From a virus (Duplodnaviria; Heunggongvirae; Uroviricota; Caudoviricetes), in the IMG/VR virus record IMGVR_UViG_2648501802_000002: DNA of 64,000 nt. The stretch is one strand, 5' to 3'. Position numbers and translations under genes: made by a program. Under the pieces are notes generated by a model. That model was not told where the DNA came from and searched no databases. It saw only the letters and a program-made list of their open reading frames with translations. This document shows, one piece after another, positions 952-50,217 of this stretch (within the stretch, counting starts at the first letter, position 1; every line of letters starts with the position of its first letter).

Positions 952-963
952 CCCTGTTACGCC

Positions 964-1329
964 TTATGCTGCCTCTTTAATGTTGGCGGCTATCCATGCC
1001 GCCGTGTGCTGTTTAACCTGGTCCAGATCGATGTATGTGCCAACATATTGACTCAAGTCCTGCAACGTACCGATAAATGCATCGGTGCTCTGATCGACGA
1101 ATTTATCAGCCAGGAAATCAGCAACCAGTTTTGGCACACCATCATGTACCGAAGGTTGTTTTTCCTCGCCACTACCGCCGCCGGACGCGCCGTACCCCAT
1201 CTGTTGCATGATCTGGTCAATTTCATCGCTGATATCCAGCAACTCCATGCCACTCGCGGTAGCCGCTTTGGACATCAGAGCATCCAACTTATCGCTGAGA
1301 TCCATTAACTCAATAGCTGATAGTGTCAT
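964..1329 (-). CDS. Hypothetical small acidic protein (position of ddrA in a P1 dar-like operon)
   Basis: ORF track 121 aa; co-directional with and overlapping the stop of the upstream 639-aa gene. Confidence 0.5.
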   Translation of the reverse strand: MTLSAIELMDLSDKLDALMSKAATASGMELLDISDEIDQIMQQMGYGASGGGSGEEKQPSVHDGVPKLVADFLADKFVDQSTDAFIGTLQDLSQYVGTYIDLDQVKQHTAAWIAANIKEAA

Positions 1330-3245: not shown

Positions 3246-3246
3246 G

Positions 3247-3858
3247 TTAATTTCCTGCTTTCAGTTGCTTAAGACGGCGTTTGAGTTCGCCATTCCGTGC
3301 CTTTTCGTTATTGAGTCGGCCCGTCTCCTTATCCAACTTCGCCCGCAAATCTGTGATCTGCTGTTGATTGAAAGACACCGAATTCTGCGCGGACTTATAA
3401 GCGGCAACCACCTGAGCATTCCGCTGTTTTGCTTCTTGCAGGCGCTGAAAGTTGGATTTAACTGCCGGTTTCTTGTCTACCGGATTGGCAACACGCTTCG
3501 CTTTGGCGATCAGTGATTTCTGGAATTTCGCAGAGTTTTTGCGGGCCGCTTGCCCCATGACGGTACCAAGCGTCTTGATATCTGGCGACTGTGCGTTAGG
3601 AATAGATTTTCCATTCAGTTTCACAGCCGATATATCACCAGTATCGTTTACCTGTATGGCAAGAATTTGTCCGTCGTTAAGAACCAGTTTTGCGGTTTTA
3701 ACTTTAACGCCATCTTTCGTTGTTGCGCGGTTGCTGGAGTCAACCTCAATTACCGTAACACCGGTTTTATTGATCGCCGCGATAAGGGATTTCAGCCCCT
3801 TTTCATTAACCTGGTCAAAATCGACCGTTGCATACTTATTTTTCGTCATCTGACACAT
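3247..3858 (-). CDS. Hdf-like protein (homolog of a fragment of the 639-aa protein)
   Basis: ORF track 203 aa; motif ...LNDGQILAIQVND...ARKNSAKFQ matches ...LSDGQTISILFHS...AEKNSAKFQ in the downstream 639-aa protein. Confidence 0.5.
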   Translation of the reverse strand: MCQMTKNKYATVDFDQVNEKGLKSLIAAINKTGVTVIEVDSSNRATTKDGVKVKTAKLVLNDGQILAIQVNDTGDISAVKLNGKSIPNAQSPDIKTLGTVMGQAARKNSAKFQKSLIAKAKRVANPVDKKPAVKSNFQRLQEAKQRNAQVVAAYKSAQNSVSFNQQQITDLRAKLDKETGRLNNEKARNGELKRRLKQLKAGN

Positions 3859-4279
3859 CCTGTGCGAGATTTATTACGTAACTTCTGCGGATTTGCTGAG
3901 TAACAGGGAAAATCCGATACAACGGGTTAATGAACGAGTCGCCATGCGTAACCATGACGTTGAAATGCCACAGTCGCTCTCCTTTACCCATATATTCAGT
4001 GGGTATGTACAACCATTCACTGTTTTCGCCCTGTTCAGCCGACGTCAGACAACGTTGTTCGCCTTCAATCACTGTCGTCGGCTTCTGAACATCGCGGATC
4101 CAATATCTGACCGTTGCGCCGCGCAAAAACGGGAATTTAGACCGGTATTTGAACGGCACCCGAATGAAACCCGGTTTAATTTCCACATCACCAAGTTCTA
4201 AATGCGTGATGTCCTTGCGTTTTAGCAAATAGCGATCGGCTAAGGCTAACGCAAGAACGCATACACCCCAGCCAATCAT
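3836..4279 (-). CDS. Hypothetical protein (position of P1 lydB-like gene)
   Basis: ORF track 147 aa; overlaps neighbours in operon fashion. Confidence 0.45.
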   Translation of the reverse strand: MIGWGVCVLALALADRYLLKRKDITHLELGDVEIKPGFIRVPFKYRSKFPFLRGATVRYWIRDVQKPTTVIEGEQRCLTSAEQGENSEWLYIPTEYMGKGERLWHFNVMVTHGDSFINPLYRIFPVTQQIRRSYVINLAQDVSDDEK

Positions 4280-4705: not shown

Positions 4706-5177
4706 GTGTGCGCCCAGCATGGGCGCGATCTTGGAGGTGAAAGCCCTCCCGCGAGCTGACCACAGCGAGCGAAAGGAAGTGCAACTGCGTGAGGGCGGCT
4801 AGGCGTGGGGAGGAAGCACGGAATGAACCCGTGAGCCGATGAACAAGAATCGGATATGAGGCGCGATGGAGCAAGGCGAGCAGGCACATCACTGCGAAGC
4901 TTTCGTGACAAAGTCGCGTAGATCCGACGGTTGTGCGGGGAAGGATCGCGTTCTTACCTGGGGAGTTCTCGCCTCATGCCTGAAAGGGCAACGTCGTAAG
5001 ACGGAGCGAGAAGTCAGCAGAGGCCGTAGTAGTCAGGACTCCGACGAAGGGCCGAACGAGAAGGAAAGCCAAAAGATATGACTCTTGACAGGACATTGCG
5101 TCAGAAGCCGGGGAAGCCCGGTACGGACCCGCATGCCGGGTGGTGTGGCAGGGGCGCAGCCTTGTGCTCCCCCCTAT
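4706..5177 (+). ncRNA. Candidate ORF-less group II intron-like structured RNA (possibly a decayed remnant)
   Basis: GC-rich segment with no credible ORF. Starts GTGCGCCCAGCATGGG (group II GUGYG 5' consensus, close to Ll.LtrB GUGCGCCCAGAUAGGG from memory) directly 3' of a perfect 11-bp hairpin (CATCCTCCACG-N10-CGTGGAGGATG, 4675-4706). Many GNRA-like loops; ends ...CUCCCCCCUAU (AY 3' end). No RT/IEP ORF, and I could not pick out an unambiguous domain V by eye. Confidence 0.3.
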
Positions 5178-5603
5178 GCCGATCAAGCAGAACATTGTGC
5201 TGGGCCTCTGACGCATCTCCTTGATGGTCTTGGCATCGTGCTTAAGTGGATTGGTGTCGTCTCTGATAGGCTCATGGAGGCAGAATGAAACTCAAAAATC
5301 CGGGACAGCACGCAAAACAGGCTGCACAAAAAGCGCAGGTTGCGTAGGAGTGGAATCCCGCTCCCAAAAAATGGTGCAGAAGTTGCGGCAGTGGTCATCC
5401 GACGCACTGGAAAATAACAAACCCGCCGTGACCAGAATCGGAGGCCTGAGGGAGTGACCGTAAAACCGGATAACCCAGGCAGCAAATACCCGCTGGATGA
5501 GGCATGGTTCCGGCAGATAATACCGAAAACCGCCAGACACACTGGATAATCAGTAGAAATAACCCATTAAAATCATTATAATAATTGGGCACATTATTAT
5601 ATT

Positions 5604-6167
5604 ATGCTGAATAATAGAGACATGAATATTAATGAACTTAAAGACTGTATTCACTATGAAGTAATCGGTAGCGAGCGTCCTTTCTCCTGGCGAAAGGCAA
5701 TTGTTCGCGCAATAAAACATAGAAGAGTTCGTTATTTATTTTGGTGGCGCATAGCCAAATACCTTTTTGATAAAGGCGGATACTGTCGGAAGATTGCGGG
5801 GAAAATGGAACGTTTCATTCTTGATAAATATAGTGTAACAGTCCCTTTAACTGTAAATATAGGGAAAGGCTTTGATATTTCTTATCTCAACGGTGTTGTT
5901 ATCGGTCACAAAGTAACCATTGGTGAAAATTGTTCAATAAAACCAGGGGTAACTATTGGGCTACGTGGTGATTTTAATGATATGGATATTGTTATAGGAC
6001 ATAATGTGACCATTGGTTGTAATGCCACCATTCTTGGTGGCAAAGTGCGTATAGGAAACAATGTCACAATAGGTGCTCATGCATTGGTATTGCATGATAT
6101 TCCTGATGATTCAACATTCATCACTAAATTTCAGTCTGAAGTTATCTGCTCGTCCTCTTGCACATAA
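5604..6167 (+). CDS. Hexapeptide-repeat (left-handed beta-helix) acetyltransferase, WcaF/LacA-like; moron
   Basis: ORF track 187 aa; hexapeptide repeats ([22 protein letters not shown]...[33 protein letters not shown]); AT-rich island; convergent with tfa; TATAAT-like box near 5577. Confidence 0.8.
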
Positions 6168-6748
6168 CCCTGATTCATCAGCTCTGGCCATACGATATCC
6201 GGAGCTGTACTGGTGTCAATTCGACTCACTAATACTCTGTATTTTCTCCAGGAATCCAGTTGTGAATTTTCCTCGGTTGTTGCTATTTCAAGATTAACTG
6301 CATCCTGCAGAATTGCGATGTTATCTGTTGCCTCCTGAATCAACCTTGCCTTTTTCTCTTCCGCTTCCCGTATCCGAAACAGTTTTTCTGCTTCCTCATC
6401 CTTCACCCAGGATACGCCGTCCCACTTCTGATACTCCCCTGCTGGCGACAACCAGGTGACATTCTCTGGTAACGGTCCGAGTTCAGAAATAAACAACGCG
6501 TCCCCCGATGCCACGTCATAGACCGTTTTACCACGATGGTCTTCAACAATAATCCATGATTCATTTTCACTGTTAAAAACTGCCACAAAGCCAGCAGGAA
6601 TTTCCGGTGGGGCGATATCTGTAGAATTAGCTGGTAGCCCTGTATGAGGTGGAATATATGCGTCACCTTCACCAATAAACTCATTAGTTCCGGCGAGCAG
6701 GTTATAAATTTTTACAGTACGTGATTGTTCACTCATTCTGAATGCCAT
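6131..6748 (-). CDS. tfa: Tail fibre assembly protein Tfa
   Basis: ORF track 205 aa; N-terminus [41 protein letters not shown] is near-identical to lambda Tfa as I recall it. Confidence 0.9.
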
Positions 6749-7640
6749 TATGCAAGCCTCACAATATAATTAAATGCGATGTTTTTAACGGTGTTTTCCG
6801 AGTTACCAGCAGCGTTAACGGTGATGGTGTGTCCATGTGAACCAATCGCAACAGAGTGCGTATGAGCGCCAATATCAACTGTATGTGCATGCGCCCCTGC
6901 ACTTGCAGCGGTGCCTGATACTGAGTGGGTGTGTGCACCAGAAGAAGGCACAGTTCCATTCCCCACCACAGTGCCGCTTGATGAGCCATCAAGCCAGTCG
7001 AAATTCATACCGCCACCATCTGGTCTCCTTAATGGAACGGTATGAGTATGTGCGCCAGCACTATTTGCAGTACCAGATACATTGTGGGTATGTGCACCTG
7101 TGTTATTCGTTGATTTAGTACCGTAATCAAACGAAGATGTGGTTTTCGTACCCAAATCCGTATTGGATGCGCTGGCGCTGTGGGTGTGCGATTTAATGCC
7201 ATCCTGTTCCAGAGACAATACGTCCCGACCACTGGCGGGTTTGCCCTTGATTGTCCAGCCACGCATATCCGGGATCACGCCTGACGGATAAGCGGCTGCA
7301 AGTTTCGGGTATGCAGATTTGTCAAAAGTCTGTCCCTGCATCAGGGCGTAACCAGACGGCACAGTATCTGATGGCCACGGATGCGGAACACCAACAGGAA
7401 GGACCTCAATATCCCCGGAACCATCAAACGAAACGTTATTAATTTTACGGGCTGTTTTCAGCTTTGTAGCCGTTGAGGCATTGCCGGACAGCTCACCAGA
7501 AATGCCACCAACAACTGTTAGATCACCAGTTATTGTGCCGCCTGAACTTTCCAGTTTTTTAGCAACATCACTCTTAATAGAGTCGATTTCTTTTTTTCAG
7601 ATTAGTTATATCTGCTGGTATCGTTGTCACTGTTGCCATA
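6748..7640 (-). pseudogene. Side tail fibre C-terminal (receptor-binding) gene interrupted by a +1 frameshift in an A7 tract
   Basis: ATG near 7638-7640 with AAGGA Shine-Dalgarno; reads [16 protein letters not shown] then hits a stop. The long frame (..[23 protein letters not shown]...[15 protein letters not shown]...GAHTHSV...[11 protein letters not shown], lambda Stf-like C-terminus) opens at the homopolymer (plus-strand T7 at about 7594-7600). A6 would give one ORF of about 297 aa. Confidence 0.65.
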
Positions 7641-7812
7641 TTAATTCCTTACGCCCATTCCCGCAGCGGTTGTTCTAATTGAACTTCAAAACCATCAAAC
7701 ATTTGTTGTTTCAAACTGTTGTTTAAAATACGAACATTAACGAAGAAGCCATCATTTTTAATCACTGTTGGTTCTTCGTTCTCGCCGTTTGGTATTTCGG
7801 TATATGTAACAC

Positions 7813-9240
7813 CTACAACATCAAGAAGAATGTTGTTTTGCAGCTCTTCATTATCGTGGTGCCGAGTTCTCTTAAACCAAGGTATTGGATAACAGCAAGG
7901 ACGCTTGTTTTGGACAGAATATCGCGACCGACTGACGTTAAGTCAGTCTGAGAAACAGTGTCTGTACCGGTAAAGTACGGCAGTTTATTTGCGCCTGTAG
8001 CAAGACCAGCAAGCGCGGTTAAAGTTGCATCCAGAGGCTGTTTGCCTGCCAGCGCATTTGTCATTGTTGTCGCAAAGTTCGGGTCATTACCAAGTGCTGC
8101 GGCAAGCTCATTCAGGGTATCAAGAGCTTCTGGTGATGAACCAACCAATGCGGATATGGCAGCTCTTACATAAGCAGTCGTAGCAATCTGCGTATTATTT
8201 GTGCCCTGCGCAGCCGTAGGCGCAGTAGGGACTCCCGTTAATGCAGGGCTTGCCAAAGGCGCTTTGAGGGCTAGGGCATTGTTGATAGTTGTGCTGAAAT
8301 TCGGGTCGTTATTGATCGCAGCAGCTATTTCTTTAAGCGTATCCAGTGTGCCAGGTGCACCGTTGATAAGTGCCGTTATAGCTGACTTAACAAAGGCTGT
8401 ATTTGCGATCTGCGTGCTATTTGTACCTTGCGCTGCCGTCGGCGCGGTTGGCGTTCCTGTCAGACTCGGGCTTTCTATTGGCGCTTTGGTATCAGCAAGA
8501 CCTTTTACAGACTTAACGGCTTTAGGGGTAGCCGCCATTGTTTCGCTGTCGCTGTTAGTTTCGCTACTGAGCTGAACTAATCCCTTTTGCGTTGTGCTTG
8601 CATCCTGTGCCGTATACTTGCTTTTCGCCAGATCGTAGGCTTTTTTAGCTGCCAGCGAACTTGCAGCAACATCACTTCTGCTACTGGTTACAGAGTCTGA
8701 AATATCAATGCCGATCGTGCGGTTAATACGCTCGGATGTATCAATCATCTCCTGGGTAATGGCTGATACGCCAGCAGGGATATTCACCGTACAAACAAGC
8801 AGCTCTCCATCTCCTAACTGATATGAATCGGTATAGGTTCTGGCAACAAATTCAGCCGCATGAATATGTGACGCGGTATTAACCTGATAGGTATCCTCTC
8901 CAAGGAGGTATCTTCCCTTCAGCACAATTGCATATTTCTTGCCTTCACTAAGTGCAAGAGAAATATCCTTACGGTGCCGAATAGTTACCTGGTAGAATTC
9001 ACCAATATCCACTGACGCAGCGCCAGCAGTTTTATCACCATCCACTGAGGTGATTAACAGGTTCATACCACCGCCAGGCTTCGGCAGGAAACCGGCATAA
9101 AACCCAGGATCAACAATTCCCCTGAATTTTCGGTTTAGCGCGGCTGACAGATATGGTTCGTGGTATTGCACATCAGCCACCAGAGCCAGTGACTCGGGCG
9201 ATGGGTAAGTAACTGATGTAACAACTGTAACGTCATTCAT
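7813..9240 (-). CDS. Tail fibre protein, N-terminal/constant part (Stf / P1 S-like)
   Basis: ORF track 7813..9327; start set at internal MNDVTVVTSV. Contains TTQKGLVQLSSETNSDSETMAATPKAVKSV and repeated SP(A/S)LTG(T/V)PTAPTAAQGTN fibre repeats. Ends abruptly after YLGLRELGTT. Confidence 0.8.
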   Translation of the reverse strand: MNDVTVVTSVTYPSPESLALVADVQYHEPYLSAALNRKFRGIVDPGFYAGFLPKPGGGMNLLITSVDGDKTAGAASVDIGEFYQVTIRHRKDISLALSEGKKYAIVLKGRYLLGEDTYQVNTASHIHAAEFVARTYTDSYQLGDGELLVCTVNIPAGVSAITQEMIDTSERINRTIGIDISDSVTSSRSDVAASSLAAKKAYDLAKSKYTAQDASTTQKGLVQLSSETNSDSETMAATPKAVKSVKGLADTKAPIESPSLTGTPTAPTAAQGTNSTQIANTAFVKSAITALINGAPGTLDTLKEIAAAINNDPNFSTTINNALALKAPLASPALTGVPTAPTAAQGTNNTQIATTAYVRAAISALVGSSPEALDTLNELAAALGNDPNFATTMTNALAGKQPLDATLTALAGLATGANKLPYFTGTDTVSQTDLTSVGRDILSKTSVLAVIQYLGLRELGTTIMKSCKTTFFLML

Positions 9241-9251
9241 CAAGCATATCC

Positions 9252-9686
9252 TTATGCTATAGTCGTGTTGATGGCCATAACTGCGGTATATGTTTTTCCC
9301 ACATACAGCGAGTCTTCCTGAACACAAATAATTGCGATGGGCTTATTCTCGTTATCCAGAACAACCAGAGTGTTGAATGGATAGTTTTTCCCTTCCTGCA
9401 ACTGGCTTTGATCAAGGTCCATTCGGACAGTAATTATCCCGCCAGAGTAGGTTGGGACGAGGTTGATGGTGCAAAATTGACTGGTCAGTTCTGCCAACTC
9501 GAAAGTCTTTGGCAGTTCTCCAATGTCATAAGTACCATCTTCATTTTTGGTAACCAGCGAACTGGTGCCGAAAACGGCCTTGCTGATTAAAAATCGAGAG
9601 CCTTTGTTAATGGACGATTCAGCGCGTCGCTGATAGTAATAATCCAACAACTGACTCTTATAGAGATTTGTTGAGACGTCAGACAT
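9252..9686 (-). CDS. Tail/baseplate-associated protein (P1 R-like position)
   Basis: ORF track 144 aa; directly upstream of the tail fibre gene in the same operon. Confidence 0.45.
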   Translation of the reverse strand: MSDVSTNLYKSQLLDYYYQRRAESSINKGSRFLISKAVFGTSSLVTKNEDGTYDIGELPKTFELAELTSQFCTINLVPTYSGGIITVRMDLDQSQLQEGKNYPFNTLVVLDNENKPIAIICVQEDSLYVGKTYTAVMAINTTIA

Positions 9687-39751: not shown

Positions 39752-41227
39752 TTAGGAGCGCCAAAAAAAACCTGAAAACAATATAATAACAGGATAAATT
39801 TCAAGGCGACCAAGAATCATAGCTATGCACATTAAACATTTTGCAATGTCATTAAGCACTCCGAATGACGATGCAGTAGCCCCAAAACCTAATCCCATAT
39901 TATTAATACATGCAGCCACTGTTGCAAATGATGTAAGAAAATCATATCCCATACCATTTAACACCAGTATAAAAAACACCGTGAAGAGAGTATAAAGAAA
40001 AAAGAAACTCCATACAGACCTCATTACACGATCTGTAACTATCTTCCCTCCTACATTTACACTCAACAACGCTCTGGGATGAGAAAGCTGATTTATCTCG
40101 TGTTTGCTTTGTTTGAAAAGTATAAGAAATCGAAGTGACTTAATTCCACCACAAGTTGAACCTATACATCCCCCAAAGAAACTTGACAACAGCAAAAACA
40201 CTATCGTGTGCGTGGGCCAACTTGCATAATCCTGCGTAGCTAAACCATTATCAGTGAGCATGGAGCTGGCAAGAAAAAACGAATGAATAAAACTTCCATG
40301 CAAGTCATACATACCTATATGCCAGACCTGGAAAGAGGTAACAATGATCACCCCTAAGGCTATTAACAGAAAGAAACGAAGTTCAATATCTCTGATTAAA
40401 GGTTTTATCGTTTTCCTGCTAATAACAATATACCAAAGAGTGAAGTTGAAAGCCGATAGCAGGGAAAAAGAACCAGCCACCAGCTCAACCAAATAGTTAT
40501 TAAAATATCCGATACTCTCGCTATGAGTTGAGAAACCACCAAGCGAAACTGTGGAAATCCCGTGACAAATAGCATCAAACAAAGGCATTCCTGCAAGTCT
40601 ATAACAGACAATACAAGCAATACCTAATAAAGAATAAGTTATCCACAGTGTCCGTGACGTATCGGCCAGGCGGGGAGTGAGTTTGTCATCCTTAAATGGC
40701 CCCGGCATTTCTGACTGATAAAGCTTTGCACCACCAATACCCAATAATGGCAATACAGCAACCGCCAGAACAATAACTCCTAAACCACCTATAAAATTTA
40801 ACTGTGACCGATAGTACAAATATGCCCGAGGTAATGAACTAACATCATCAATTACAGTTGCTCCTGTTGTTGTTATTCCAGAAACCCCTTCAAACAGAGC
40901 ATCAATGAACGTTAAATTAAGTTCTGAGTCAATCCATAAAGGGAATGCACTAATAACAGAAAACAAAATCCAAAACATTACAATTATAATAAACCCATCA
41001 CGGGTACGTAATTGAATGCCAGATTTCTTAGTTGTATACCACGCTCCGCCACCAATGCAAAAAAATATAACGAAAGTTATAAAGAAAACGAACAGGCTTT
41101 TTTCTTTATAAAACAATGCTACAACCATTGGTGGCAACATTGAAAGACTATAGAGCCAAACCAGGAACCCACACATATGAGTAACAACTCTTACATGAGA
41201 TGTATTCATATCTAAATATTCTTTCAA
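39752..41227 (-). CDS. trkG: TrkH/TrkG-family potassium uptake membrane protein (Rac prophage TrkG)
   Basis: ORF track 491 aa; polytopic membrane protein with repeated selectivity-filter-like glycines (SGITTTGATV, GGLGV, LGGFST); AT-rich moron in the position Rac has trkG after rz. Confidence 0.85.
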   Translation of the reverse strand: MKEYLDMNTSHVRVVTHMCGFLVWLYSLSMLPPMVVALFYKEKSLFVFFITFVIFFCIGGGAWYTTKKSGIQLRTRDGFIIIVMFWILFSVISAFPLWIDSELNLTFIDALFEGVSGITTTGATVIDDVSSLPRAYLYYRSQLNFIGGLGVIVLAVAVLPLLGIGGAKLYQSEMPGPFKDDKLTPRLADTSRTLWITYSLLGIACIVCYRLAGMPLFDAICHGISTVSLGGFSTHSESIGYFNNYLVELVAGSFSLLSAFNFTLWYIVISRKTIKPLIRDIELRFFLLIALGVIIVTSFQVWHIGMYDLHGSFIHSFFLASSMLTDNGLATQDYASWPTHTIVFLLLSSFFGGCIGSTCGGIKSLRFLILFKQSKHEINQLSHPRALLSVNVGGKIVTDRVMRSVWSFFFLYTLFTVFFILVLNGMGYDFLTSFATVAACINNMGLGFGATASSFGVLNDIAKCLMCIAMILGRLEIYPVIILFSGFFWRS

Positions 41228-41346: not shown

Positions 41347-41823
41347 TTACTTTAAACACTGCTCGGTTATGTATTGCTGAGCACCTTCAAGTTGGGCCTG
41401 CATCATTACCAGTCGTTCCCGGAGGGTGAAATAATCCCGTTCAGCGGTGTCTGCCAGTCGGGGGGAGGCTGCATTATCCACGCCGGAGGCGGTGGTGGCT
41501 TCACGCACTGACTGACAGACTGCTTTGATGTGCAACCGACGACGACCAGCGGCAACATCATCACGCAGAACATCATTTTCAGCTTTCGCATCAGCTAACT
41601 CCTTCGTGTATTTTGCATCGAGCGCAGCAACATCACGCTGACGCATCTGCATGTCAGTAATTGCCGCGTTCGCCAGCTTCAGTTCTCTGGCATTTTTGTC
41701 GCGCTGTTCTTTGTAGGCGATGGCGTTATCACGGTAATGATTAACACCCCATGACAGGCAGACGACGATGCAGATAACCAGAGCGGAGATAATCGCGGTT
41801 ACTCTGTTCATTGCTGACCCCAC
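41347..41823 (-). CDS. rzpR: Rz i-spanin
   Basis: ORF track 158 aa; N-terminal TM then coiled-coil; follows endolysin. Confidence 0.8.
41406..41591 (-). CDS. rzoR: Rz1 o-spanin lipoprotein (embedded in Rz, +1 frame)
   Basis: ORF track 61 aa; lipobox LVVVGC, Pro-rich ([15 protein letters not shown]); entirely within rz. Confidence 0.7.
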
Positions 41824-42305
41824 AAACAGATTTCACGCTCAATCTCACGACGAGTCATGAGACCTTTCCATTGCTTACCGCCAGCATATGTCCAGCGACG
41901 TAGCTGATCACATGCGCCTTTGATATCGCCCTGGTTTATTTTGCGAAGAAGCGTCGATGTTCTGAAATTGCCAGCACCCACGTTGTAAACGAATGAGTAA
42001 AGAGCGCCGCGCGTTGTTTCCGGTATATCGACTTTGATGTACGGGTTAATTTGTCTGGCGACCGTGGCAAGGTCTTTATTCAAGAGTGTTTTGCATTCTG
42101 CTTTGGTATACGTTTTACCGAGCATGATGTCTTTTCCTGTATGCCCGTGACATACAGTCCATACACCAACAATATCTTTGTATGGTATGTAGCTGACACC
42201 TTCCAGACCATCGTTACCACTTGGGCCAGTGATTAACACTGATGCTATAGCAATTGCTCCGCCACCAATAGCAGCAGCAACGACTTTTCGTAATGATGGA
42301 GGCAT
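41808..42305 (-). CDS. SAR endolysin (T4 E-type lysozyme with N-terminal signal-anchor-release domain)
   Basis: ORF track 165 aa; N-terminal Gly/Ala-rich SAR helix ([18 protein letters not shown]), catalytic region resembling phage 21 R. Confidence 0.85.
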
Positions 42306-42520
42306 TATTCACCTCTCGCAGCCTTGCGCTTATCTTCTTTAATCTTGAAATAAAGGTTTGTCAGGTACGTCAGCAGGCCAAATACCAGACTACCCAGCAC
42401 ACCGATTGCAGCCCACTGTGACGGAGTTACTCTATCGAGCAACTGTAAAAACCAGTAGCCAGCACTGCCTGCGGAGGTGCCGTAGGCAATGCCTGTTGAA
42501 ATTTTGTCCATGGATTTCAT
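42305..42520 (-). CDS. Pinholin, phage 21 S21-type (dual start)
   Basis: ORF track 42305..42577; start placed at [26 protein letters not shown]..., which matches S21 as I recall it; two TMs and a charged C-terminus. Confidence 0.85.
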
Positions 42521-42771
42521 AGCCTCACCTCCGCACGGAACGGATGGCATAGTTATTATGTGTAGGCTTTCAGACACATCAATCAGAGCCTTAATTGATA
42601 TATATGCTGGAGACGATGCAATATAAAAAGCTCGCCGTAGCGAGCTAATAAAATGTATTTCTCTGATATTATGTTTATTTGTATTAGCTCAGACTTGACA
42701 TCACAGGTTTCGTATATAGAACATCATCAAATCTGTCAGTTTGCTATGAATGAGATATAGTAACTGAAGAG

Positions 42772-43167
42772 CTAACCTCGCATGTCAAAGCCAGATTTCT
42801 GAAAATCTCTGTAGACTTCCGGATTGTTGAAGGCCGGAAATTTGGCTTTATGAGCTGCGGACTTTATCGCTTCGCAATAGGCTTTATCACCGTTACTGGT
42901 AGATATTTTTAACGCCGTACCATCCTGAGAGAATTCCATATGCAACCTGCATTTTTTCCCTTTCCAGTTATGCGGCTCATCAAGTTTGGCATTAATTGCA
43001 GCTCTGATTCCCCGCGCTTGCGCCCCCCATTCATCCTGATCATCCCAGCGTCCTGAACTGCAACTACCTGTAGCAGTAGTTTTGTGGCAATCTGAAGGGT
43101 GTAAAGGTGTGCATCCCGCAACAAAACCGACCCAAAAAGTCAACATAACGATTTTCTTTAATCCCAC
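42772..43167 (-). CDS. Lipoprotein (paralog B), unknown function; moron
   Basis: ORF track 131 aa; signal peptide and lipobox (FVAGC); shares GKxCxLxMxxxxxGxxLxxxxxxGDxxxCxAxxxAxxxxxxPAxxxPEVYxxFQ with the upstream lipoprotein. Confidence 0.65.
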   Translation of the reverse strand: MGLKKIVMLTFWVGFVAGCTPLHPSDCHKTTATGSCSSGRWDDQDEWGAQARGIRAAINAKLDEPHNWKGKKCRLHMEFSQDGTALKISTSNGDKAYCEAIKSAAHKAKFPAFNNPEVYRDFQKSGFDMRG

Positions 43168-43317
43168 TTCTTGCTCCTCAATCCATTAAAATCTCAGCAA
43201 TAGTAGTTGTTACGTCCGCCACTGGCTCAGAGCTGACTATCCGCTAAATTTAGCTCAGTGCCGTAGCTGTGTCAGAACAAACCTAAGCCGAAACCGTTTA
43301 TTACAAAACAATAAATA

Positions 43318-43746
43318 TCAGGGTTTAAAATCCAGCACCCCATTTTGAAATACTTTATATACTTCCGGCGAAGGGGGGGCAGGTATATCAGCATTCTTTA
43401 TCGCATTCATCGCTTCACGACATAAATCGAGGTCTCCACTTTCTCTTTTAACCTCCAGTAGAAGGCCATTCGGGGCCATATGCATTCTCAGTGTACACTC
43501 TTTTCCTGAATACTTACTCGCATCCCCGAACTGTTTTTCGATGGCGCTCTTGATTTGATGGGCATACAGACGGATATCCTCACTAACATCAGAAGTACGT
43601 TCAGATGAACTCACATACTGTGTCTCTATTGCTTTATCGGAGTAATATGATGTACGGTCATGATAATTTGTCGATACAGCATCAGTGCACCCGATAATAA
43701 TCCCACTAATAATCAACGTAAGAATTGATGCGCTACGAAAACCCAT
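43318..43746 (-). CDS. Lipoprotein (paralog A), unknown function; moron
   Basis: ORF track 142 aa; lipobox (IIGC); paralog of 42772..43167; AT-rich surroundings. Confidence 0.65.
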   Translation of the reverse strand: MGFRSASILTLIISGIIIGCTDAVSTNYHDRTSYYSDKAIETQYVSSSERTSDVSEDIRLYAHQIKSAIEKQFGDASKYSGKECTLRMHMAPNGLLLEVKRESGDLDLCREAMNAIKNADIPAPPSPEVYKVFQNGVLDFKP

Positions 43747-44682
43747 TTTTCCTCACATATGTCATATAGTAAAGGATTATATATACCGTTGTTTTGGACG
43801 CTCAAACAGCGAATCAGATCAAATAAAACGCACATTTGTTAACATTTACACAAAGTCTGCGTGGGATATTCTGAAAGAATATCCATAATGTGGAGAGAAT
43901 CTATTGAAGTGCATGGTGCCGGGTGCCTCCCGGTGAACAAAATGTTCGTGATACCTGTCGGCGACAGAAAAGGTTAATGGTATCACCCCACCGCACAGGG
44001 GGATTCACCATGCAGGAGTTTTCTTAGCAAACTCACTGCGCGCCCGGCAACTCCCAACCACATAAAATGCGGAGTTTGTGGTATTTATGCATATAACTCG
44101 CAGGAATTATCTTAAAAAACTGATGTCGATCCGGATTAAAAAGAAGCAGGTCATCATCAGATGACTGGAAAAAAGGAAAACAAAAAATACTCATCATACA
44201 GTTTTGATTGCAGGGATGAGCCTGCTATGCACAATATGCAGAATATAAGCAAGATAAAAATATGCAGGCATATTATTTCGGATTTTGTTATTAACACAAC
44301 CTTTTTAATAATCATTTGGCATACAATAAACCAGCCCAAAAAGAACCGCCTAAACAGGCGGTTGGTCAATACAAAGGATGCTTCGTCTTTATTATAGTAA
44401 TCTGAGGCGTCGAGTGTCTTGTATCAGACAACATATTGTCCCGCTAAACAGCGAATTACAAACCACCCTGCAATGATCTCTCATCTCATTTTATATGAGT
44501 TGACGACATCAGGATAACGCATCATCAGCCCCTGCCAAGAAATATCAAAACTCCCGCCAGCAATGTGTTATCACAATATTGTAAAAAAAACACAGCACCG
44601 AAACTATAACTGGTCTCTGTTATAATTTGGAGCAGAAAGACCAGTTGCCCAACTAGCAGCATTCTCCCCTGCTTTCCTGACG

Positions 44683-44712
44683 TAAAAAAACCGCATTGAG
44701 CGGTTTTTTTAC
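44683..44712. terminator. Bidirectional intrinsic terminator downstream of the Q-like gene (tR'-like)
   Basis: AAAAAAACCGC-ATTGA-GCGGTTTTTTT perfect hairpin flanked by A- and T-runs, about 80 bp downstream of the Q-like stop. Confidence 0.65.
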
Positions 44713-44790
44713 GATGTCCATGTCTGCAATCCGCCTCGCGATACAGCTTTACGAAGCATAGCAAAATTGAAGCAGTTTATACGTAAGAAA

Positions 44791-45384
44791 TCAAGCCATT
44801 TTCTCAGCAAATGATTCACGCATGGGAATATATAGGGCATACTCAGCAACAGCTAACCAATTAGCAATCCGTTTTTCGCATGTGCTAAAACACCACTCTG
44901 GGTGTGCATCATTTAGCAATTCAGCCATTTTGCGCTTAGTCATCCCCCGCCCTTCATAGCGTTGCCGGAGAATGCAAATCAATCCTGGATGCTCTGCCAG
45001 CACCTCACTTATGACTCGATCAATACATAACGCCTCTGCATCAGTACAATGCGCCAGCCAGCTCTTTTGCTTGCCGTTGATCATCTCTCGCAAAAACGCT
45101 TCCAGCTCAGCTTTCTCTATTCCCGCTTTTTTCATTCTGCGCAGGGCTTCATTAATGGCTGTTTTCGTCAGTTTTTTGGATGCCAACAACTGATTGAACA
45201 TATTCCCTGACCTGCCACCGCCAATATACGACCAGCGCCCCACATACGTAGTTTTCCCTGAATCCAGACACTTTCCAGCGTGGTGAGGCGAAGGTGTTCT
45301 CCGCTTTTTCCTGTATTCGTTGGGTAAATCATAAATGACCTTTCTTTCTCCAGATTTCTTGTGTGCGAAAAACCCCTTCAGCAT
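44791..45384 (-). CDS. Putative late-gene antiterminator (Q-like)
   Basis: ORF track 197 aa; Cys/His-containing basic protein immediately upstream of a strong terminator and the lysis cassette. Positional inference only. Confidence 0.4.
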   Translation of the reverse strand: MLKGFFAHKKSGERKVIYDLPNEYRKKRRTPSPHHAGKCLDSGKTTYVGRWSYIGGGRSGNMFNQLLASKKLTKTAINEALRRMKKAGIEKAELEAFLREMINGKQKSWLAHCTDAEALCIDRVISEVLAEHPGLICILRQRYEGRGMTKRKMAELLNDAHPEWCFSTCEKRIANWLAVAEYALYIPMRESFAEKMA

Positions 45385-46717: not shown

Positions 46718-48109
46718 ATGACTGAGAACACGACTCCAACAGCAGACTTTAGTCCTAGTAAAAGATTTTTTGTGAGTATGCTAACTCGAGATATCGACTT
46801 AAACGATGCCATACTTGATCTGCTTGATAACTGCGTCGATGGGGCTTTACGTACAATAAAAGACACAAAAAAAACTTCAAAACCATATGAAGGATTTTAT
46901 GCGAAACTTACGATTAATAAAGATGTCTTTATTATAGAAGACAATTGCGGAGGTATCCCTAAAAGCTTCCGAGAATATGCTTTTAAAATGGGACGACCCC
47001 ATCAAAAAGAAGAAGAAAATGAAGGCACCGTTGGCGTCTATGGTATTGGTATGAAAAGAGCCATTTTTAAAATGGGTAGAGATTGCTCAATACAATCGAA
47101 TAATCCCGATGGCGCATTCACTGTAGATATAACACCTGATTGGATCGATGGTGATGGTTGGAAAATACCGATGCACGAGAGTGACTATGATAACAAAAAT
47201 CCAACAGGCACAACTATAGAGATAAAAAAACTCCATTCTAATGTGGCACAAAAATTTAATGAGAGCACATATCTTACTGATCTCTTTTTACAGATAAAAC
47301 ACTCATTGTCATTTATTATTCAAAAAGGATTTAAAATAGAATTAAATGGAGTTGTTGTTGAACATAATCCGATTAACATCATAACTGATCATTCTAAAAT
47401 AGAACCATACATATATAAAGCTAAAATAGACGATGTTGATATCGATTTAGTTGTTGGCTTCTATAAAAATTTAGAAGATGACAATGATGATGTTTTAGAA
47501 AAAAGGAGTTCTGATGATGCTGGATGGACTGTCATTTGCAATGACCGCGTTGTTCTATATTGTGATAAGACACATCTCACAGGTTGGGGCTTTGCTAATG
47601 TACCAAGGTTTCATACCCAATTTATAGCAATTTCTGGGGTTGTTCGCTTTACCAGTAAAAACCCAGAAAAATTACCAATAACAACAACGAAACGAGGTGT
47701 CGATCTTAGTTCTACATTGTACAATGATGTACGAAATAAAATGATTGAAGGGATGATGCATTTTATTCGATTCACCAATCAGTGGAAAGGTGAGCATCTT
47801 GAAGAAGGGAAAAAATTACTTAAGTCAGCTCAGTCACATGAAGCTCAATCTTTATTTGAAATTACCCCACAATCAACTCCAGAAGATAAAAAAAATAACT
47901 GGTCCAACCCTAATAGAAACAAAAATGAGTGGCGATATACACCTAAGCTGCCTACCCCAGTAAAAAAAAGCTCTACTGTACGAATAATCTTCACCAGAGA
48001 GAAAGAAGATGTTAAAATTTTATCTAAATATTTCTTTGGACATGAAGATGCTAGCGCTTCTGATGTGGGGATGCAATGCTTTGATACGGTGATTGAAGAG
48101 GTGAAGTGA
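46718..48109 (+). CDS. MORC/MutL-like GHKL (Bergerat-fold) ATPase with C-terminal region of unknown function
   Basis: ORF track 463 aa; N-box LDLLDNCVDGA, G1 box IIEDNCGGIP, G2 box GVYGIGMKRAIF; low-GC island; opposite strand to all flanking phage genes. Confidence 0.8.
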   Translation: MTENTTPTADFSPSKRFFVSMLTRDIDLNDAILDLLDNCVDGALRTIKDTKKTSKPYEGFYAKLTINKDVFIIEDNCGGIPKSFREYAFKMGRPHQKEEENEGTVGVYGIGMKRAIFKMGRDCSIQSNNPDGAFTVDITPDWIDGDGWKIPMHESDYDNKNPTGTTIEIKKLHSNVAQKFNESTYLTDLFLQIKHSLSFIIQKGFKIELNGVVVEHNPINIITDHSKIEPYIYKAKIDDVDIDLVVGFYKNLEDDNDDVLEKRSSDDAGWTVICNDRVVLYCDKTHLTGWGFANVPRFHTQFIAISGVVRFTSKNPEKLPITTTKRGVDLSSTLYNDVRNKMIEGMMHFIRFTNQWKGEHLEEGKKLLKSAQSHEAQSLFEITPQSTPEDKKNNWSNPNRNKNEWRYTPKLPTPVKKSSTVRIIFTREKEDVKILSKYFFGHEDASASDVGMQCFDTVIEEVK

Positions 48110-49098
48110 TGTCTGGACAATACATTCCCTATCACTTAAGGCATAATAAGTCTATTGATAGAGAGATTTTTCTCGAAAGCCTAAACCTCTTAAGCAAAAG
48201 ACTAAATATTCAAGAATATACATATATAGGTTTTGGTGGTCCGATGCTTGAAGATTTTAGAATCATGCATAATCGTATCGCTCTTTCTGATATGATTTCT
48301 CTCGAAGAACAAGAGTCTACTCACATCAGACAAAAATATAATTTGCCTTATAATTGTATTGATTGTAAGCTAATATCAGCTCATGACTTTATTCTTGATT
48401 ATAGTTTTTCTAAACCATCAATAACATGGTTAGACTATGCCTCCCCGAAAAAAATACAAACGGATCTAGATGATATACACTTACTAAGTACTAAAGTAAG
48501 CTCTTTTGATATTTTGAAGGTCACCTTCCCCATAAATCCTAGTTCTTATTACCAACGTAGAGTTGGAGAAAGTTTAGATATTTTTAAAGAAGCTTTTATT
48601 AATTCATTAAAATCATTGCTTGGGAAAAAGTATCTTGATTTTAATCTTCAGATATCAAATGCAGATCTTTCAGATCGTAAGATTAAAGCTCTTTTAATAC
48701 GAATTATTACAAACGCTTTTAGATCAGCAATAGAACGTGGTCTTTCAGGACGTAAGGATAAGATTCAGTATTACCCATTATCTTTAAATCAATATAATGA
48801 TGGCAGTCATACCATGTTGACAATATCAGGTTTTTTCTCCTCAGAACAAGAATATATAGAGTTATCTAAGGCATGCGACCTTTCTAACTGGCAATTTTAT
48901 TCAACAAATTGGGAAGACGTGCAAGAAATAGCAATACCAACACTAACAATTAAAGAAAAGATAAATTTAGATAGTAAACTGCCTGATAAAGAAGCATATC
49001 AGGCAGCCGCTGAAGAGTTCTCTTTAAACGAAAATGAACGGGATAACTATTATAAATACTATAGGTTATACCCTAACTTCCAAAGAATTATGGTTTAA
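48109..49098 (+). CDS. Hypothetical protein coupled to the GHKL ATPase (candidate effector/partner)
   Basis: ORF track 48106..49098; ATG overlaps the upstream stop (TGATG); 329 aa with no motif I can assign; low GC. Confidence 0.7.
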   Translation: MSGQYIPYHLRHNKSIDREIFLESLNLLSKRLNIQEYTYIGFGGPMLEDFRIMHNRIALSDMISLEEQESTHIRQKYNLPYNCIDCKLISAHDFILDYSFSKPSITWLDYASPKKIQTDLDDIHLLSTKVSSFDILKVTFPINPSSYYQRRVGESLDIFKEAFINSLKSLLGKKYLDFNLQISNADLSDRKIKALLIRIITNAFRSAIERGLSGRKDKIQYYPLSLNQYNDGSHTMLTISGFFSSEQEYIELSKACDLSNWQFYSTNWEDVQEIAIPTLTIKEKINLDSKLPDKEAYQAAAEEFSLNENERDNYYKYYRLYPNFQRIMV

Positions 49099-50217
49099 AT
49101 ATTCGGGCTGTACTCTTTTATTTAATAAATTGTACAGCCCCTTTAATATATATTCAGCAACTATTGGTGACACGCTATTTCCTATTTGTCTGAAACTATG
49201 CCATTTAGTTACATGAAAGCGAAACCAATCAGGGAAGCCTTGTAATCTAGCAGCTTCTCTTGGTGTAATCACTCTTGGATGATAAGGGTGGATCGGCCTG
49301 ACGGCTTGAAAGCTTCCTTTATCTCTAGCGGTTCCCGCCCTTAAAGTCGGGCAAAAACCATTTGGATCTAATCTTGTAGATCTTGAAATTTTATCAGTTT
49401 CCCCAAAAGATAAGGAAGCATAACGCTCTTGGACGATTTTGCTATGTAATGTTCCGGTACATCCAGATATGATATTATTTTTTAACTTAGCGATCGATTC
49501 TGTATCACCAACATTCCGAGGGATCTGCCCCCATAATTTTTCATAAAATCCCCCTTTTCGATCTTTTTTAATTGTTCGCCAACTCTCAGAGTCTGATTGC
49601 CAATTGGCATCGATAATATCTGGTAATCCATACAAAGCATCTTTTACAGTAACCGGATCAATCATTTTAGGCATAAATACTTCATCTGAAATATCAAGCT
49701 TCAATGATTTTTTTACACCGATAAAAAAATATCTAGTTCGAATAGTTGGAGCACCATAATCAGATGCTTTTACCTTGATGGGATCAAGAATATCATAATC
49801 ACCGCTAACCAAATTAAATGCTTTATTTCTAATGCCAGAATATTTCTCTTGCATAATACCTGGAACATTTTCTGCCAAAAAGAATAATGGCTGTAATTCT
49901 GATACTAAACGGTAGAAATGCATGTAAAGCTGATTCCTGCTATCATCAGGATTCCCCTTGCCTATTGAACTAAATCCTTGGCACGGAGGACCGCCAATAA
50001 TACCATCTATGGGCATATCGTTTTTAAAAAAACCCTTAATTATTTCTGCATTTAGTAAAGAAACATCTTCTTGGACGTGCAAACTTCTTGGAAAATTAAT
50101 TGCGTGAGTATTAATAGCATGTTGATCAATTTCAACTGCCATTTTAACATCAAATCCAGCACGTGCAGCACCAAGACTTAGACCTCCAACGCCAGAAAAC
50201 AAATCTATTACATTCAT
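49066..50217 (-). CDS. DNA cytosine-5 methyltransferase (Dcm-type)
   Basis: ORF track 383 aa; motif I DLFSGVGGLSLG, motif IV GGPPCQGFS, motif VI ENVPG; convergent with the GHKL operon, 3' ends overlapping. Confidence 0.9.
   Translation of the reverse strand: MNVIDLFSGVGGLSLGAARAGFDVKMAVEIDQHAINTHAINFPRSLHVQEDVSLLNAEIIKGFFKNDMPIDGIIGGPPCQGFSSIGKGNPDDSRNQLYMHFYRLVSELQPLFFLAENVPGIMQEKYSGIRNKAFNLVSGDYDILDPIKVKASDYGAPTIRTRYFFIGVKKSLKLDISDEVFMPKMIDPVTVKDALYGLPDIIDANWQSDSESWRTIKKDRKGGFYEKLWGQIPRNVGDTESIAKLKNNIISGCTGTLHSKIVQERYASLSFGETDKISRSTRLDPNGFCPTLRAGTARDKGSFQAVRPIHPYHPRVITPREAARLQGFPDWFRFHVTKWHSFRQIGNSVSPIVAEYILKGLYNLLNKRVQPEYLNHNSLEVRV

Follow-up and report, generated by a model that had tools for sequence, protein, structure and literature searches.

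Two small adjacent genes, termed A and B, were analysed in a 64,000-nucleotide stretch of Caudoviricetes DNA (IMG/VR record IMGVR_UViG_2648501802_000002), the whole of which is referred to as the window. Both are encoded on the minus strand with a spacer of 150 nt between them, and each specifies a lipoprotein carrying domain III of TolA (Table 1). The window is 100% identical to Escherichia coli ST2747, where the element is a Rac-type prophage situated at ttcA with intR, recET, kilR, sieB, racR and trkG; some tail genes of this prophage are frameshifted. A sequence-only reading had placed the pair between a Q-like gene and the lysis cassette, and the annotation of the flanks bears this out. 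DUF1367, YbcO and a DUF1133 (PHROG 753) Q-like gene lie 5' of the cargo site, and a phage-21 S-type (P21-type) holin, a lysozyme of the signal-arrest-release (SAR) type and Rz with embedded Rz1 follow 3' of the pair. A search of the gap between the Q-like gene and the holin found no tRNA genes. The description of this DNA as AT-rich holds in a mild form: the content of guanine plus cytosine (GC) is 43.6% across A and B and 41.9% for the cassette, against a window value of 47.1% and 46-52% in the phage genes on either side.

Table 1. Features of the A-B locus. Positions are numbered from the first letter of the window; protein parts are given in residues.
Feature	Position	Strand	Details
Gene A	43318..43746	-	142 aa; ATG start, GAGGA 4-5 nt 5' of start
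Gene A protein parts			Signal peptide 1-19; lipid Cys20; tether ~21-54; TolA domain III 55-142, end ...VLDFKP
Gene B	42772..43167	-	131 aa; GTG start, GAGGAG 6 nt 5' of start
Gene B protein parts			Signal peptide 1-18 (n-region KK); lipid Cys19; Cys27...Cys36 loop region; divergent TolA domain III ~46-131, end ...GFDMRG
Q-like late antiterminator (DUF1133), upstream boundary of cargo site	44791..45384	-	PF06576 E 2e-85; PHROG 753 'anti-termination protein Q-like' E 7e-60
A7-hairpin-T7 bidirectional terminator, directly past Q-like gene	44710..44684
Candidate late promoter AAGACA-18-TATAAT	44420..44391	-	Consensus scan
Terminator-like hairpin, within ~30 nt past late promoter candidate	44363..44344	-
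STnc100-family prophage small RNA (sRNA) element, immediately 5' of A	43857..44043	-	Rfam RF02076, 86.6 bits vs gathering score 47, E 1.5e-18
Sigma-70-like promoter candidate TTGAGC-18-TATAAT, 10/12	43776..43805	-	Consensus scan; ~30 nt 5' of A start codon
Intrinsic-terminator-like hairpin AGCTCGC-TACG-GCGAGCT, then TTTTATATTG	42629..42646	-	Between B stop codon and holin gene
Phage-21 S-type holin, first lysis gene and downstream boundary	42305..42577	-	PF04971 E 4.5e-35; annotated essD; start given by the NCBI Prokaryotic Genome Annotation Pipeline yields 71 aa (42305-42520)
Rest of lysis cassette past holin (lysozyme, Rz, Rz1)	41347..42305	-
Lysozyme, N-terminal SAR-like hydrophobic segment	41808-42305	-	PF00959 E 1.8e-45
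Rz	41347-41823	-	PF03245 E 4e-53
Rz1 lipoprotein, embedded in Rz	41406-41591	-	Open reading frame with lipobox VVGC and Pro-rich tail

The shared C-terminal domain of the two proteins had been noticed in the sequence-only reading, which did not recognise its family. Homology and structure searches identify it as TolA domain III (TolA-III; PF06519), a name already present in NCBI annotation. A matched PF06519 with 82.6 bits (E 2.4e-23) and B with 54.6 bits (E 1.3e-14), the curated gathering threshold being 25 bits. Residues 55 to 142 of A align without gaps to residues 334 to 421 of E. coli TolA from the PDB (E 5e-28), which is the whole of domain III to its last residue, and 52 of the 88 positions (59%) are identical. 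B aligns with the same stretch (E 5e-9) at approximately 31% identity. Cys84 and Cys109 of A, together with Cys73 and Cys98 of B, correspond to the two cysteines of TolA-III and are invariant in the family; in the E. coli domain this pair presumably forms a disulfide. The motif put forward for the shared domain was right in outline (GKxCxL...G..L...GD...C...P.....PEVY..FQ) and inexact at a few positions. In a PHROG search A and B fell into PHROG 5772, described as of 'unknown function', and Pfam returned TolA and TonB_2 only, the latter a weak match of A to PF13103 (E 5.6e-5).

Structure prediction with AlphaFold (AF2), using a 22-sequence family alignment, gave a predicted local distance difference test score above 90 for residues 52 to 140 of A and for residues ~46 to 125 of B. 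The first 40-50 residues are disordered in both models, residues 1 to 50 of A scoring below 50. The predicted secondary structure, H-h-E-E-H-H-E, comprises a three-stranded sheet with three helices and an additional short one, and the order of these elements matches the description of the TolA-III crystal structure (PMC3365938). Using Foldseek, A was superposed on 2x9a_B with a template modelling (TM) score of 0.96 and a root mean square deviation of 0.6 Å, and B on 3qdp with a TM score of 0.92, a deviation of 1.1 Å and 31% identity. The TolA-III domains of Vibrio and Pseudomonas took the next ranks and the C-terminal domains of TonB came far behind.

Neither protein is a bona fide TolA. Both lack the membrane anchor and domain II, lie outside the tol cluster and score far below the cut-off of 213 for the full-length TolA equivalog NF007065 (A 107.8, B 53.7), of which just the last ~90 profile positions match. 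Against TIGR02794, A scores 75.6 and B 47.2, above and below the cut-off of 59.45, respectively. A passes this older cut-off through its C-terminus alone, which is evidently how the NCBI pipeline arrived at the name 'tolA'; 'TolA C-terminal domain-containing protein' is also in use there. The name 'tolA' or 'TolA' for gene A is a misleading over-annotation.

The claim of two adjacent lipoprotein reading frames proved exactly right. The signal peptides end in the lipoboxes IIGC (A) and VAGC (B), the product of A beginning MGFRSASILTLIISGIIIGC followed by TD and that of B MGLKKIVMLTFWVGFVAGC followed by TP, and a lipobox is kept in 125 of 137 homologues. RefSeq starts gene B at the ATG at 43146 and not at the GTG at 43167 (GAGGAG 6 nt upstream), a choice that strips the Lys-Lys n-region from the signal peptide. 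Position +2 after the lipid-bearing cysteine is Thr in both proteins; among the 125 lipobox-bearing homologues it is Ala, Thr or Ser in 117 and Leu, Cys, Gly or Val in the other eight, and never Asp. Under the E. coli +2 rule, lipoproteins without Asp at this position (the Lol avoidance signal) go to the outer membrane, and A and B are predicted to be outer-membrane lipoproteins. Between anchor and domain, A has a disordered tether of ~34 residues rich in Ser, Thr, Tyr and Asp, whilst that of B (~26 residues) holds the invariant motif CxPLHPSxCHKTTATGSCSSGRW with two extra cysteines. In mature form, each protein would be a complete TolA-III joined to a lipid anchor by a disordered tether of 25-35 residues.

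The relationship between the two genes is more distant than the word paralogous might suggest. A BLASTP comparison of A with B gave 29% identity over 141 residues (E 2e-18), covering the whole length, and the shared C-terminal domain is therefore real and no chance resemblance. The domains are homologous and represent two long-separated lineages. A recent tandem duplication was rejected: the proteins are only 29% identical, A is nearer to TolA (59%) than to B, and B belongs to a separate, strongly conserved lineage. Derivation of A as a recent copy of the host gene was likewise rejected, as a blastn search with A at word size 11 matched 896 of 5426 genomes and so did not cross-match chromosomal tolA. 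In a rough neighbour-joining tree, which rests on 88 columns and is indicative only, A-type sequences are not nested inside the enterobacterial TolA clade.

Pairwise ratios of nonsynonymous to synonymous substitution (dN/dS; Nei-Gojobori) were calculated from a few pairs with overall dS of 0.2-1.2. For A, the domain gave 0.12-0.35 and the tether 0.36-0.68. The domain of B gave 0.05-0.08 at dS 0.4-0.8 against plasmid, Enterobacter, Serratia and Citrobacter copies, and B of the window shares 78-89% amino acid identity with 14 aligned B-type homologues from Enterobacter, Citrobacter, Serratia, Klebsiella and Raoultella. Purifying selection acts on both genes, and neither is a pseudogene, a fate that the sequence-only reading had considered (domain dN/dS 0.05-0.35). 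It had also raised the possibility of a known lysis accessory protein; A and B have no homology to one, and this identity was discarded.

Of 5426 complete E. coli genomes, 896 (~16%) contain A, nearly always on the chromosome, and 1267 (~23%) contain B, at 824 chromosomal and 536 plasmid places; approximately 780 records carry copies of both at 99% identity or more. In E. coli the two genes are accessory and essentially always on prophages or plasmids. The cassette occurs in one of 50,697 GenBank phage records, mEp460_ev081, where A is annotated 'TolA protein', and no TolA-III fold was found in the BFVD viral structure library. In IMG/VR, single-protein scans returned nothing but near-identical prophage copies, at least 125 of them. 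The block STnc100-A-B-terminator-holin is found in at least two IMG/VR backbones, one of the Rac type and one with another Q (PF03589) and another lysin, as in mEp460 (homology from 42304 to 44034). Cassette copies in IMG/VR always adjoin a P21-type holin. Where A-type genes are more divergent (91% and 66% identity), B is absent and the gene always lies between a Q gene and a P21-type holin; several of these genes adjoin nanS-p, DUF1378 and DUF826, which is the stx position of Stx phages. The cassette is thus mobile, being shared by Rac-type and other Q/lysin backbones with A-type genes alone in further Q/lysis contexts, and the suggestion that it occupies a site of lysogenic-conversion cargo is upheld by the company these A-type genes keep.

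B-type genes (~88% amino acid identity) are found elsewhere on I-complex plasmids, pO157-like plasmids and chromosomes. On I-complex conjugative plasmids (IncK2/Z, IncI1/B/O, MPF_I) they lie directly 3' of nikA-nikB on the same strand, with a gap of ~70-100 nt in the plasmid stretches retrieved (6004-9558, 342-3896 and 342-3896), and are probably part of the relaxase operon. On pO157-like plasmids the B-type gene is near toxB; an O157 proteome paper holds no information on this homologue. In Enterobacter, Citrobacter and Serratia it is a single chromosomal gene. Its neighbours in Enterobacter and Citrobacter are of housekeeping type, and in Serratia it adjoins genes of the GmrSD family (PF03235) and with HEPN domains in a defence-island-like setting (stretch 6001-8736). 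In protein-level searches of 72,556 plasmids, 917 plasmids matched B and 1300 matched A.

A HMMER scan of 1.84 billion cluster representatives revealed 333 clusters related to A. Among the best 150 of these, 84 are of 175 residues or fewer; 48 of the 84 have a lipobox, and ordinary signal peptides are seen in some of the others. TolA-III thus stands alone in a large and varied class of short proteins, secreted or lipidated, that is essentially unstudied. On ColRNAI plasmids of Klebsiella (~10 kb), an operon for a colicin-like bacteriocin, its immunity and lysis lies beside the gene of a 123-residue TolA-III lipoprotein (lipobox LLTAC followed by K; domain end FKNAPLDFRP), which overlaps the gene of a 121-residue, signal-peptide-bearing protein with a TonB_C domain. 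The Klebsiella pneumoniae plasmid p1_020030 (10,060 bp; 4908-5641), whose bacteriocin is annotated as tRNase-domain, is an example, and hundreds of Klebsiella plasmids match. A Tol-plus-Ton decoy pair is one possible interpretation of these two proteins. Klebsiella IncF plasmids carry a 144-residue TolA-III lipoprotein next to a thioredoxin-fold gene; in K. pneumoniae pCuAs (5229-6258) its gene is directly 3' of a gene for a secreted, Dsb-like thioredoxin-fold protein, a pairing that may be related to the disulfide of TolA-III.

The transcriptional setting of the cassette was examined by consensus scanning. Along the direction of transcription (right to left in the window), the Q-like gene is followed by the bidirectional terminator, the candidate late promoter with its hairpin, an AT-rich spacer, the STnc100 element, the sigma-70-like promoter candidate, A, B, the intrinsic-terminator-like hairpin and the holin. 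The late promoter candidate and hairpin (44344-44420) resemble a pR'/tR' late-promoter unit for the DUF1133 Q-like protein. Sub-threshold Rfam matches at 44629-44768 (isrK and Thr leader) were rejected, since they reflect only a terminator hairpin. The sequence of the promoter candidate ahead of A is conserved in P0007-type loci and in mEp460. The term moron applied to the pair in the sequence-only reading is in keeping with this promoter-like site, the terminator behind B, the lower GC content and the occurrence in at least two phage backbones, and the locus looks like a classical moron layout, albeit one whose promoter and terminator are consensus matches of a number barely above that in shuffled sequence.

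The STnc100 element travels with the A-B cassette, being shared with mEp460_ev081 (42304-44034) and the P0007 loci. The STnc100 and PasD sRNAs of prophages are reported to lie between Q and the holin/lysozyme operon (bioRxiv 10.64898/2026.05.13.724894). Here, the terminal hairpin of the element is without a U-run, so read-through into A is conceivable, and the element might be a long leader of A-B rather than a separate sRNA.

What such proteins might do is suggested by the domain itself. TolA-III forms the globular end of TolA, where the N-terminus of TolB is bound, and both group A colicins and the pIII protein of filamentous phages must bind this domain for entry. Residues D418 and K420 of its strand beta3 (LDFKP, L417-P421) form a site shared by the N1 domain of pIII (g3p), colicin N and TolB (PMC4339652), each of which adds a strand to beta3, and one proline substitution, at either D418 or K420, is enough to abolish all three of these interactions and produce the full tol phenotype (PMC4339652; PMC7391070). 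Colicin A adds its strand at the other edge of the domain, residues 375-380, LLDIKP (PMC3365938). The complex of IF1 g3p with TolA-III is represented by PDB entry 2x9a. Reported affinities are ~1 μM for colicin N, ~1.3 μM for colicin A, ~12 μM for g3p-N1 and 40 μM for TolB (PMC3365938; PMC4339652). Yersinia TolA differs from E. coli in the LDFKP motif, reading VKFPQ (PMC4339652).

At its C-terminus, A carries LDFKP, identical to the E. coli beta3 motif, and at the colicin A edge it has LLEVKR in place of LLDIKP, a conservative change; by a count from the alignment, helix 2 is the element most diverged from TolA. B ends in FDMRG, which keeps the Asp and is otherwise an invariant strand of its own. 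The candidate functions offered in the sequence-only reading (superinfection exclusion, receptor masking or inhibition of an envelope enzyme) were generic, and the identity of the domain narrows the field to a putative mimicry of the TolA hub domain. The earlier interpretation is in this sense partly supported, the observation beneath it being confirmed.

We favour, tentatively, the reading that A and B are outer-membrane-tethered TolA-III decoys that would confer tolerance to group A colicins and filamentous phages. Being prophage-borne and without the transmembrane anchor and domain II of TolA, they cannot be energised by TolQR, and their domains would hang from the outer membrane with no tie to that motor. 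There, as a colicin translocation domain or pIII-N1 comes through the outer membrane, its TolA-binding segment would be caught by a decoy. Trapped in this way, the invader would be uncoupled from the proton-motive force, its import would abort and the lysogen would be tolerant. A would act as a close mimic of TolA. B, a second and divergent version, may extend the set of ligands or bind some other, conserved partner. Because of its moron features, the cassette could be active in the lysogen, and late transcripts antiterminated by Q would cross A-B as well. The outer-membrane localisation, expression, ligand binding and tolerance phenotype of A and B are our inference.

Several observations accord with a decoy function, among them the TolA-III fold and cysteine pair, the ligand-site residues kept by A, the conserved lipobox, the purifying selection, the prevalence in E. 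coli and the moron-like, mobile cassette. Colicin tolerance when TolA-III is exported to the periplasm was reportedly described by Levengood-Freyermuth et al. in 1993. Sequestration of TolA by periplasmic pIII-N1 gives resistance to colicin A and a 4-log loss of phage uptake (PMC10424213). The affinities of the invaders are above that of TolB, and a modest amount of decoy could therefore intercept them without fully titrating TolB. Cells with I-complex plasmids make pili used by TolA-dependent filamentous phage, and this context supports a conflict-related role. Such a role would be independent of lysis, because relatives occur in the relaxase operon (B-type) and on bacteriocin plasmids (the Klebsiella copy beside TonB_C).

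Other observations weigh against the decoy reading. The promoter and terminator are consensus matches, and the scan gave 11 promoter-like sites against 6.6 ± 2.5 expected from shuffles, which makes single sites weak evidence. B is only ~31% identical to TolA-III and yet near invariant across genera (dN/dS 0.05-0.08), which fits a conserved endogenous partner better than TolA mimicry or an arms race. Tailed lambdoid phages do not use TolA, so that the outcome would be protection of the host and not classical superinfection exclusion. High-level export of TolA-III makes cells leaky (PMC6195910), and a decoy would therefore be costly and could equally be a tool against the envelope. No PADLOC defence model matches A or B at E <= 0.1, and full-text literature searching gave no supporting study. 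Functional studies of prophage- or plasmid-borne TolA-III lipoproteins were not found in that search, outside which most subscription journals lay, and earlier work is possible; one survey lists a 'tolA' gene on small E. coli plasmids (PMC6807383).

An unlikely but serious alternative is that A and B are late saboteurs of the Tol-Pal system, the tethered TolA-III binding or competing for the N-terminus of TolB and blocking the TolA-driven release of Pal from it. A looser outer membrane that aids lysis, vesicle formation or the release of periplasmic or prophage-encoded cargo would be the outcome, which we judge to be just as unlikely. TolB binds the very beta3 site that A keeps exactly (PMC4339652), although this binding is weak (40 μM), and point mutations that block TolA-TolB binding give the full tol phenotype. 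E. coli with exported TolA-III at high level leaks periplasmic proteins, and this is used in biotechnology (PMC6195910). With the pair placed between Q and the holin, transcripts antiterminated by Q have to run through it; the segment shared with mEp460_ev081 includes the holin, which the IMG/VR copies always adjoin. However, the terminator between B and the holin and the promoter-like site 5' of A suggest an independent unit, and the prophage already possesses a full set of holin, endolysin and Rz/Rz1. A lysis context is missing for B-type homologues on conjugative plasmids, on pO157 and on the chromosomes of Enterobacter, Serratia and Citrobacter.

A third reading, to which we assign a similarly low probability, takes the proteins, and B in particular, to be envelope accessory proteins with a conserved host partner, members of an ancient family, which would modulate or supplement Tol-Pal, or a different partner bound by beta-strand augmentation, at the outer membrane. 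Their roles could lie in the positioning of TolB and Pal or in tolerance of envelope stress, with mobile elements carrying them as general fitness cargo and not for defence; this too we regard as improbable. It draws on the 78-89% identity and low dN/dS of B-type proteins across several genera, on their single chromosomal genes with housekeeping-type neighbours in Enterobacter and Citrobacter, on the invariant tether motif of B with its two extra cysteines and on the many distinct short TolA-III proteins among the 1.84 billion cluster representatives. In E. coli, however, A and B are accessory (16-23% of genomes) and essentially always on a prophage or plasmid, the Serratia gene neighbours GmrSD and HEPN defence-type genes, and the link to bacteriocin plasmids speaks for a part in conflict and not in housekeeping.

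It is far less probable that A and B block TonB-dependent uptake, their domain pairing with the Ton boxes of outer-membrane transporters as the TonB C-terminal domain does and thereby shutting the receptors of phages and group B colicins, functionally like Llp of T5 or Cor of phi80. TolA-III and the TonB C-terminal domain are structurally related, A matches TonB_2 weakly and Foldseek finds TonB domains at low rank, but the Foldseek hits have E >0.02 and TM scores of 0.3-0.4, whereas A is 59% identical to TolA-III and retains its exact beta3 motif. The Klebsiella plasmids that pair a TolA-III lipoprotein with a secreted TonB_C protein can be cited in its favour, yet a separate TonB_C gene implies that the TolA-type domain does not cover Ton functions.

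The notion that A and B are functionless passengers, decaying fragments of captured tolA that hitch-hike in a cryptic prophage, could appeal to the frameshifted tail genes of the ST2747 prophage, to the single phage record with the cassette and to the frequent landing of insertion sequence (IS) elements in the A-B region, but is scarcely credible. Both reading frames are intact with strong Shine-Dalgarno sequences, homologues retain the signal peptide and lipobox, dN/dS lies well under 1, several backbones and types of replicon carry the cassette, and the blastn search with A at word size 11 gave no match to chromosomal tolA.

Comparison with known systems places the proposed decoys in context. 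E. coli TolA-III (PDB 1S62, 3QDP, 1TOL, 2X9A and 3QDR) shares the Pfam domain, the alpha-beta-beta-alpha-alpha-beta fold, the cysteine pair and, in A, the LDFKP motif; in contrast, TolA itself is a protein of 421 residues with a transmembrane anchor and a long helical domain II, encoded in the ybgC-tolQRA-tolB-pal-cpoB cluster, whereas A and B have 142 and 131 residues with a lipoprotein signal peptide and short tether and are encoded by a prophage between a Q-like gene and holin. Recombinant exported TolA-III (Levengood-Freyermuth 1993; Wan and Baneyx 1998) is likewise a periplasmic TolA-III uncoupled from TolQR, but is artificial, soluble and over-produced, where A and B are natural, diverged in sequence and predicted to be lipid-anchored. 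Periplasmic pIII-N1 engages the same beta3-N1 interface, with the same expected tolerance of colicin A and Ff (PMC10424213). It is the mirror image of the present case, in that N1 masks the TolA of the host and A and B would mask the invader with a spare TolA-III.

Llp of T5 and Cor of phi80 and N15, which block FhuA, are also small phage lipoproteins, predicted to sit at the inner leaflet of the outer membrane and to shield against phages and colicins that share a route (background on Llp: bioRxiv 10.64898/2026.03.26.714494). They have no sequence or fold relation to A and B, for which Pfam and PHROG searches gave TolA-type matches and PHROG 5772 only, and they plug a receptor, whereas A and B would imitate a periplasmic import hub and titrate the invader. 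Bor and Lom of lambda and the cargo of Stx phages are accessory genes not needed for phage growth in or next to the late-lysis region, Bor being another lipoprotein, and A-type genes sit exactly at the place of stx, next to nanS-p; the protein families are, however, unrelated to A and B. Pfam, PHROG and PADLOC searches gave no homology of A or B to Llp, Cor, Bor or PADLOC models. We know of no link of A or B to virulence or serum resistance.

A broader and more doubtful proposition is that mobile elements of Enterobacterales share an undescribed 'hub-domain decoy' defence consisting of stand-alone, outer-membrane-tethered or secreted C-terminal domains of TolA or, on Klebsiella plasmids, TonB. 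These would intercept Tol- and Ton-dependent colicins and pilus-specific filamentous phages in the periplasm. Their carriers would be prophages at the stx position, I-complex plasmids behind the relaxase and, elsewhere, pO157 and small bacteriocin plasmids. A and B would then form a two-decoy cassette of widened spectrum, and co-transcription with nikAB would shield piliated cells from phages that need TolA as co-receptor. To our knowledge, neither this architecture nor its presence across mobile elements nor the logic of a decoy has been described before, the domain and its annotation being already known.

Should the decoy reading prove true, its reach would follow from the place of TolA-III as the single periplasmic handle of group A colicins and of filamentous phages of the Ff, IF1 and CTXphi types. 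A motor-less, mobile TolA-III would offer the hosts of prophages and plasmids a simple new route to tolerance of bacteriocins and plasmid-dependent phages. It could account for unexplained colicin tolerance in wild E. coli, given the ~16% and ~23% of complete genomes with A and B, and it would bear on plans to employ colicins or pilus-specific phages against pathogens and resistance plasmids; O157:H7 is one such pathogen, its pO157 carrying a B-type gene. If, instead, sabotage of Tol-Pal is the correct reading, A and B would be natural modulators of Tol-Pal and of vesicle release, encoded at the cargo site of Shiga toxin.

Further features of the prophage were observed. Elements of the IS1, IS2, IS3 and IS5 families are repeatedly inserted in the A-B region of different genomes, and one genome has insertions both between A and B and in the start of the holin gene; this AT-rich stretch of cargo DNA seems to be a hot spot for them. 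The potassium transporter gene trkG (39752-41227, minus strand; GC 37.8%) lies between Rz/Rz1 and the ParB and terminase genes, and the prophage that bears it also has the Q-like gene, A, B, holin and lysozyme ahead of Rz. Between the DUF1367 gene and the replication genes is an AT-rich island (46718-50217; GC 0.29-0.38) with, on the plus strand, genes for a GHKL-type ATPase (PF13589) and a Methyltransf_35 'putative O-methyltransferase' (PF20553), for which PADLOC gave no match. These two genes converge with that of a Dcm-type C5 DNA methyltransferase, and the island could be an uncharacterised defence or modification module.

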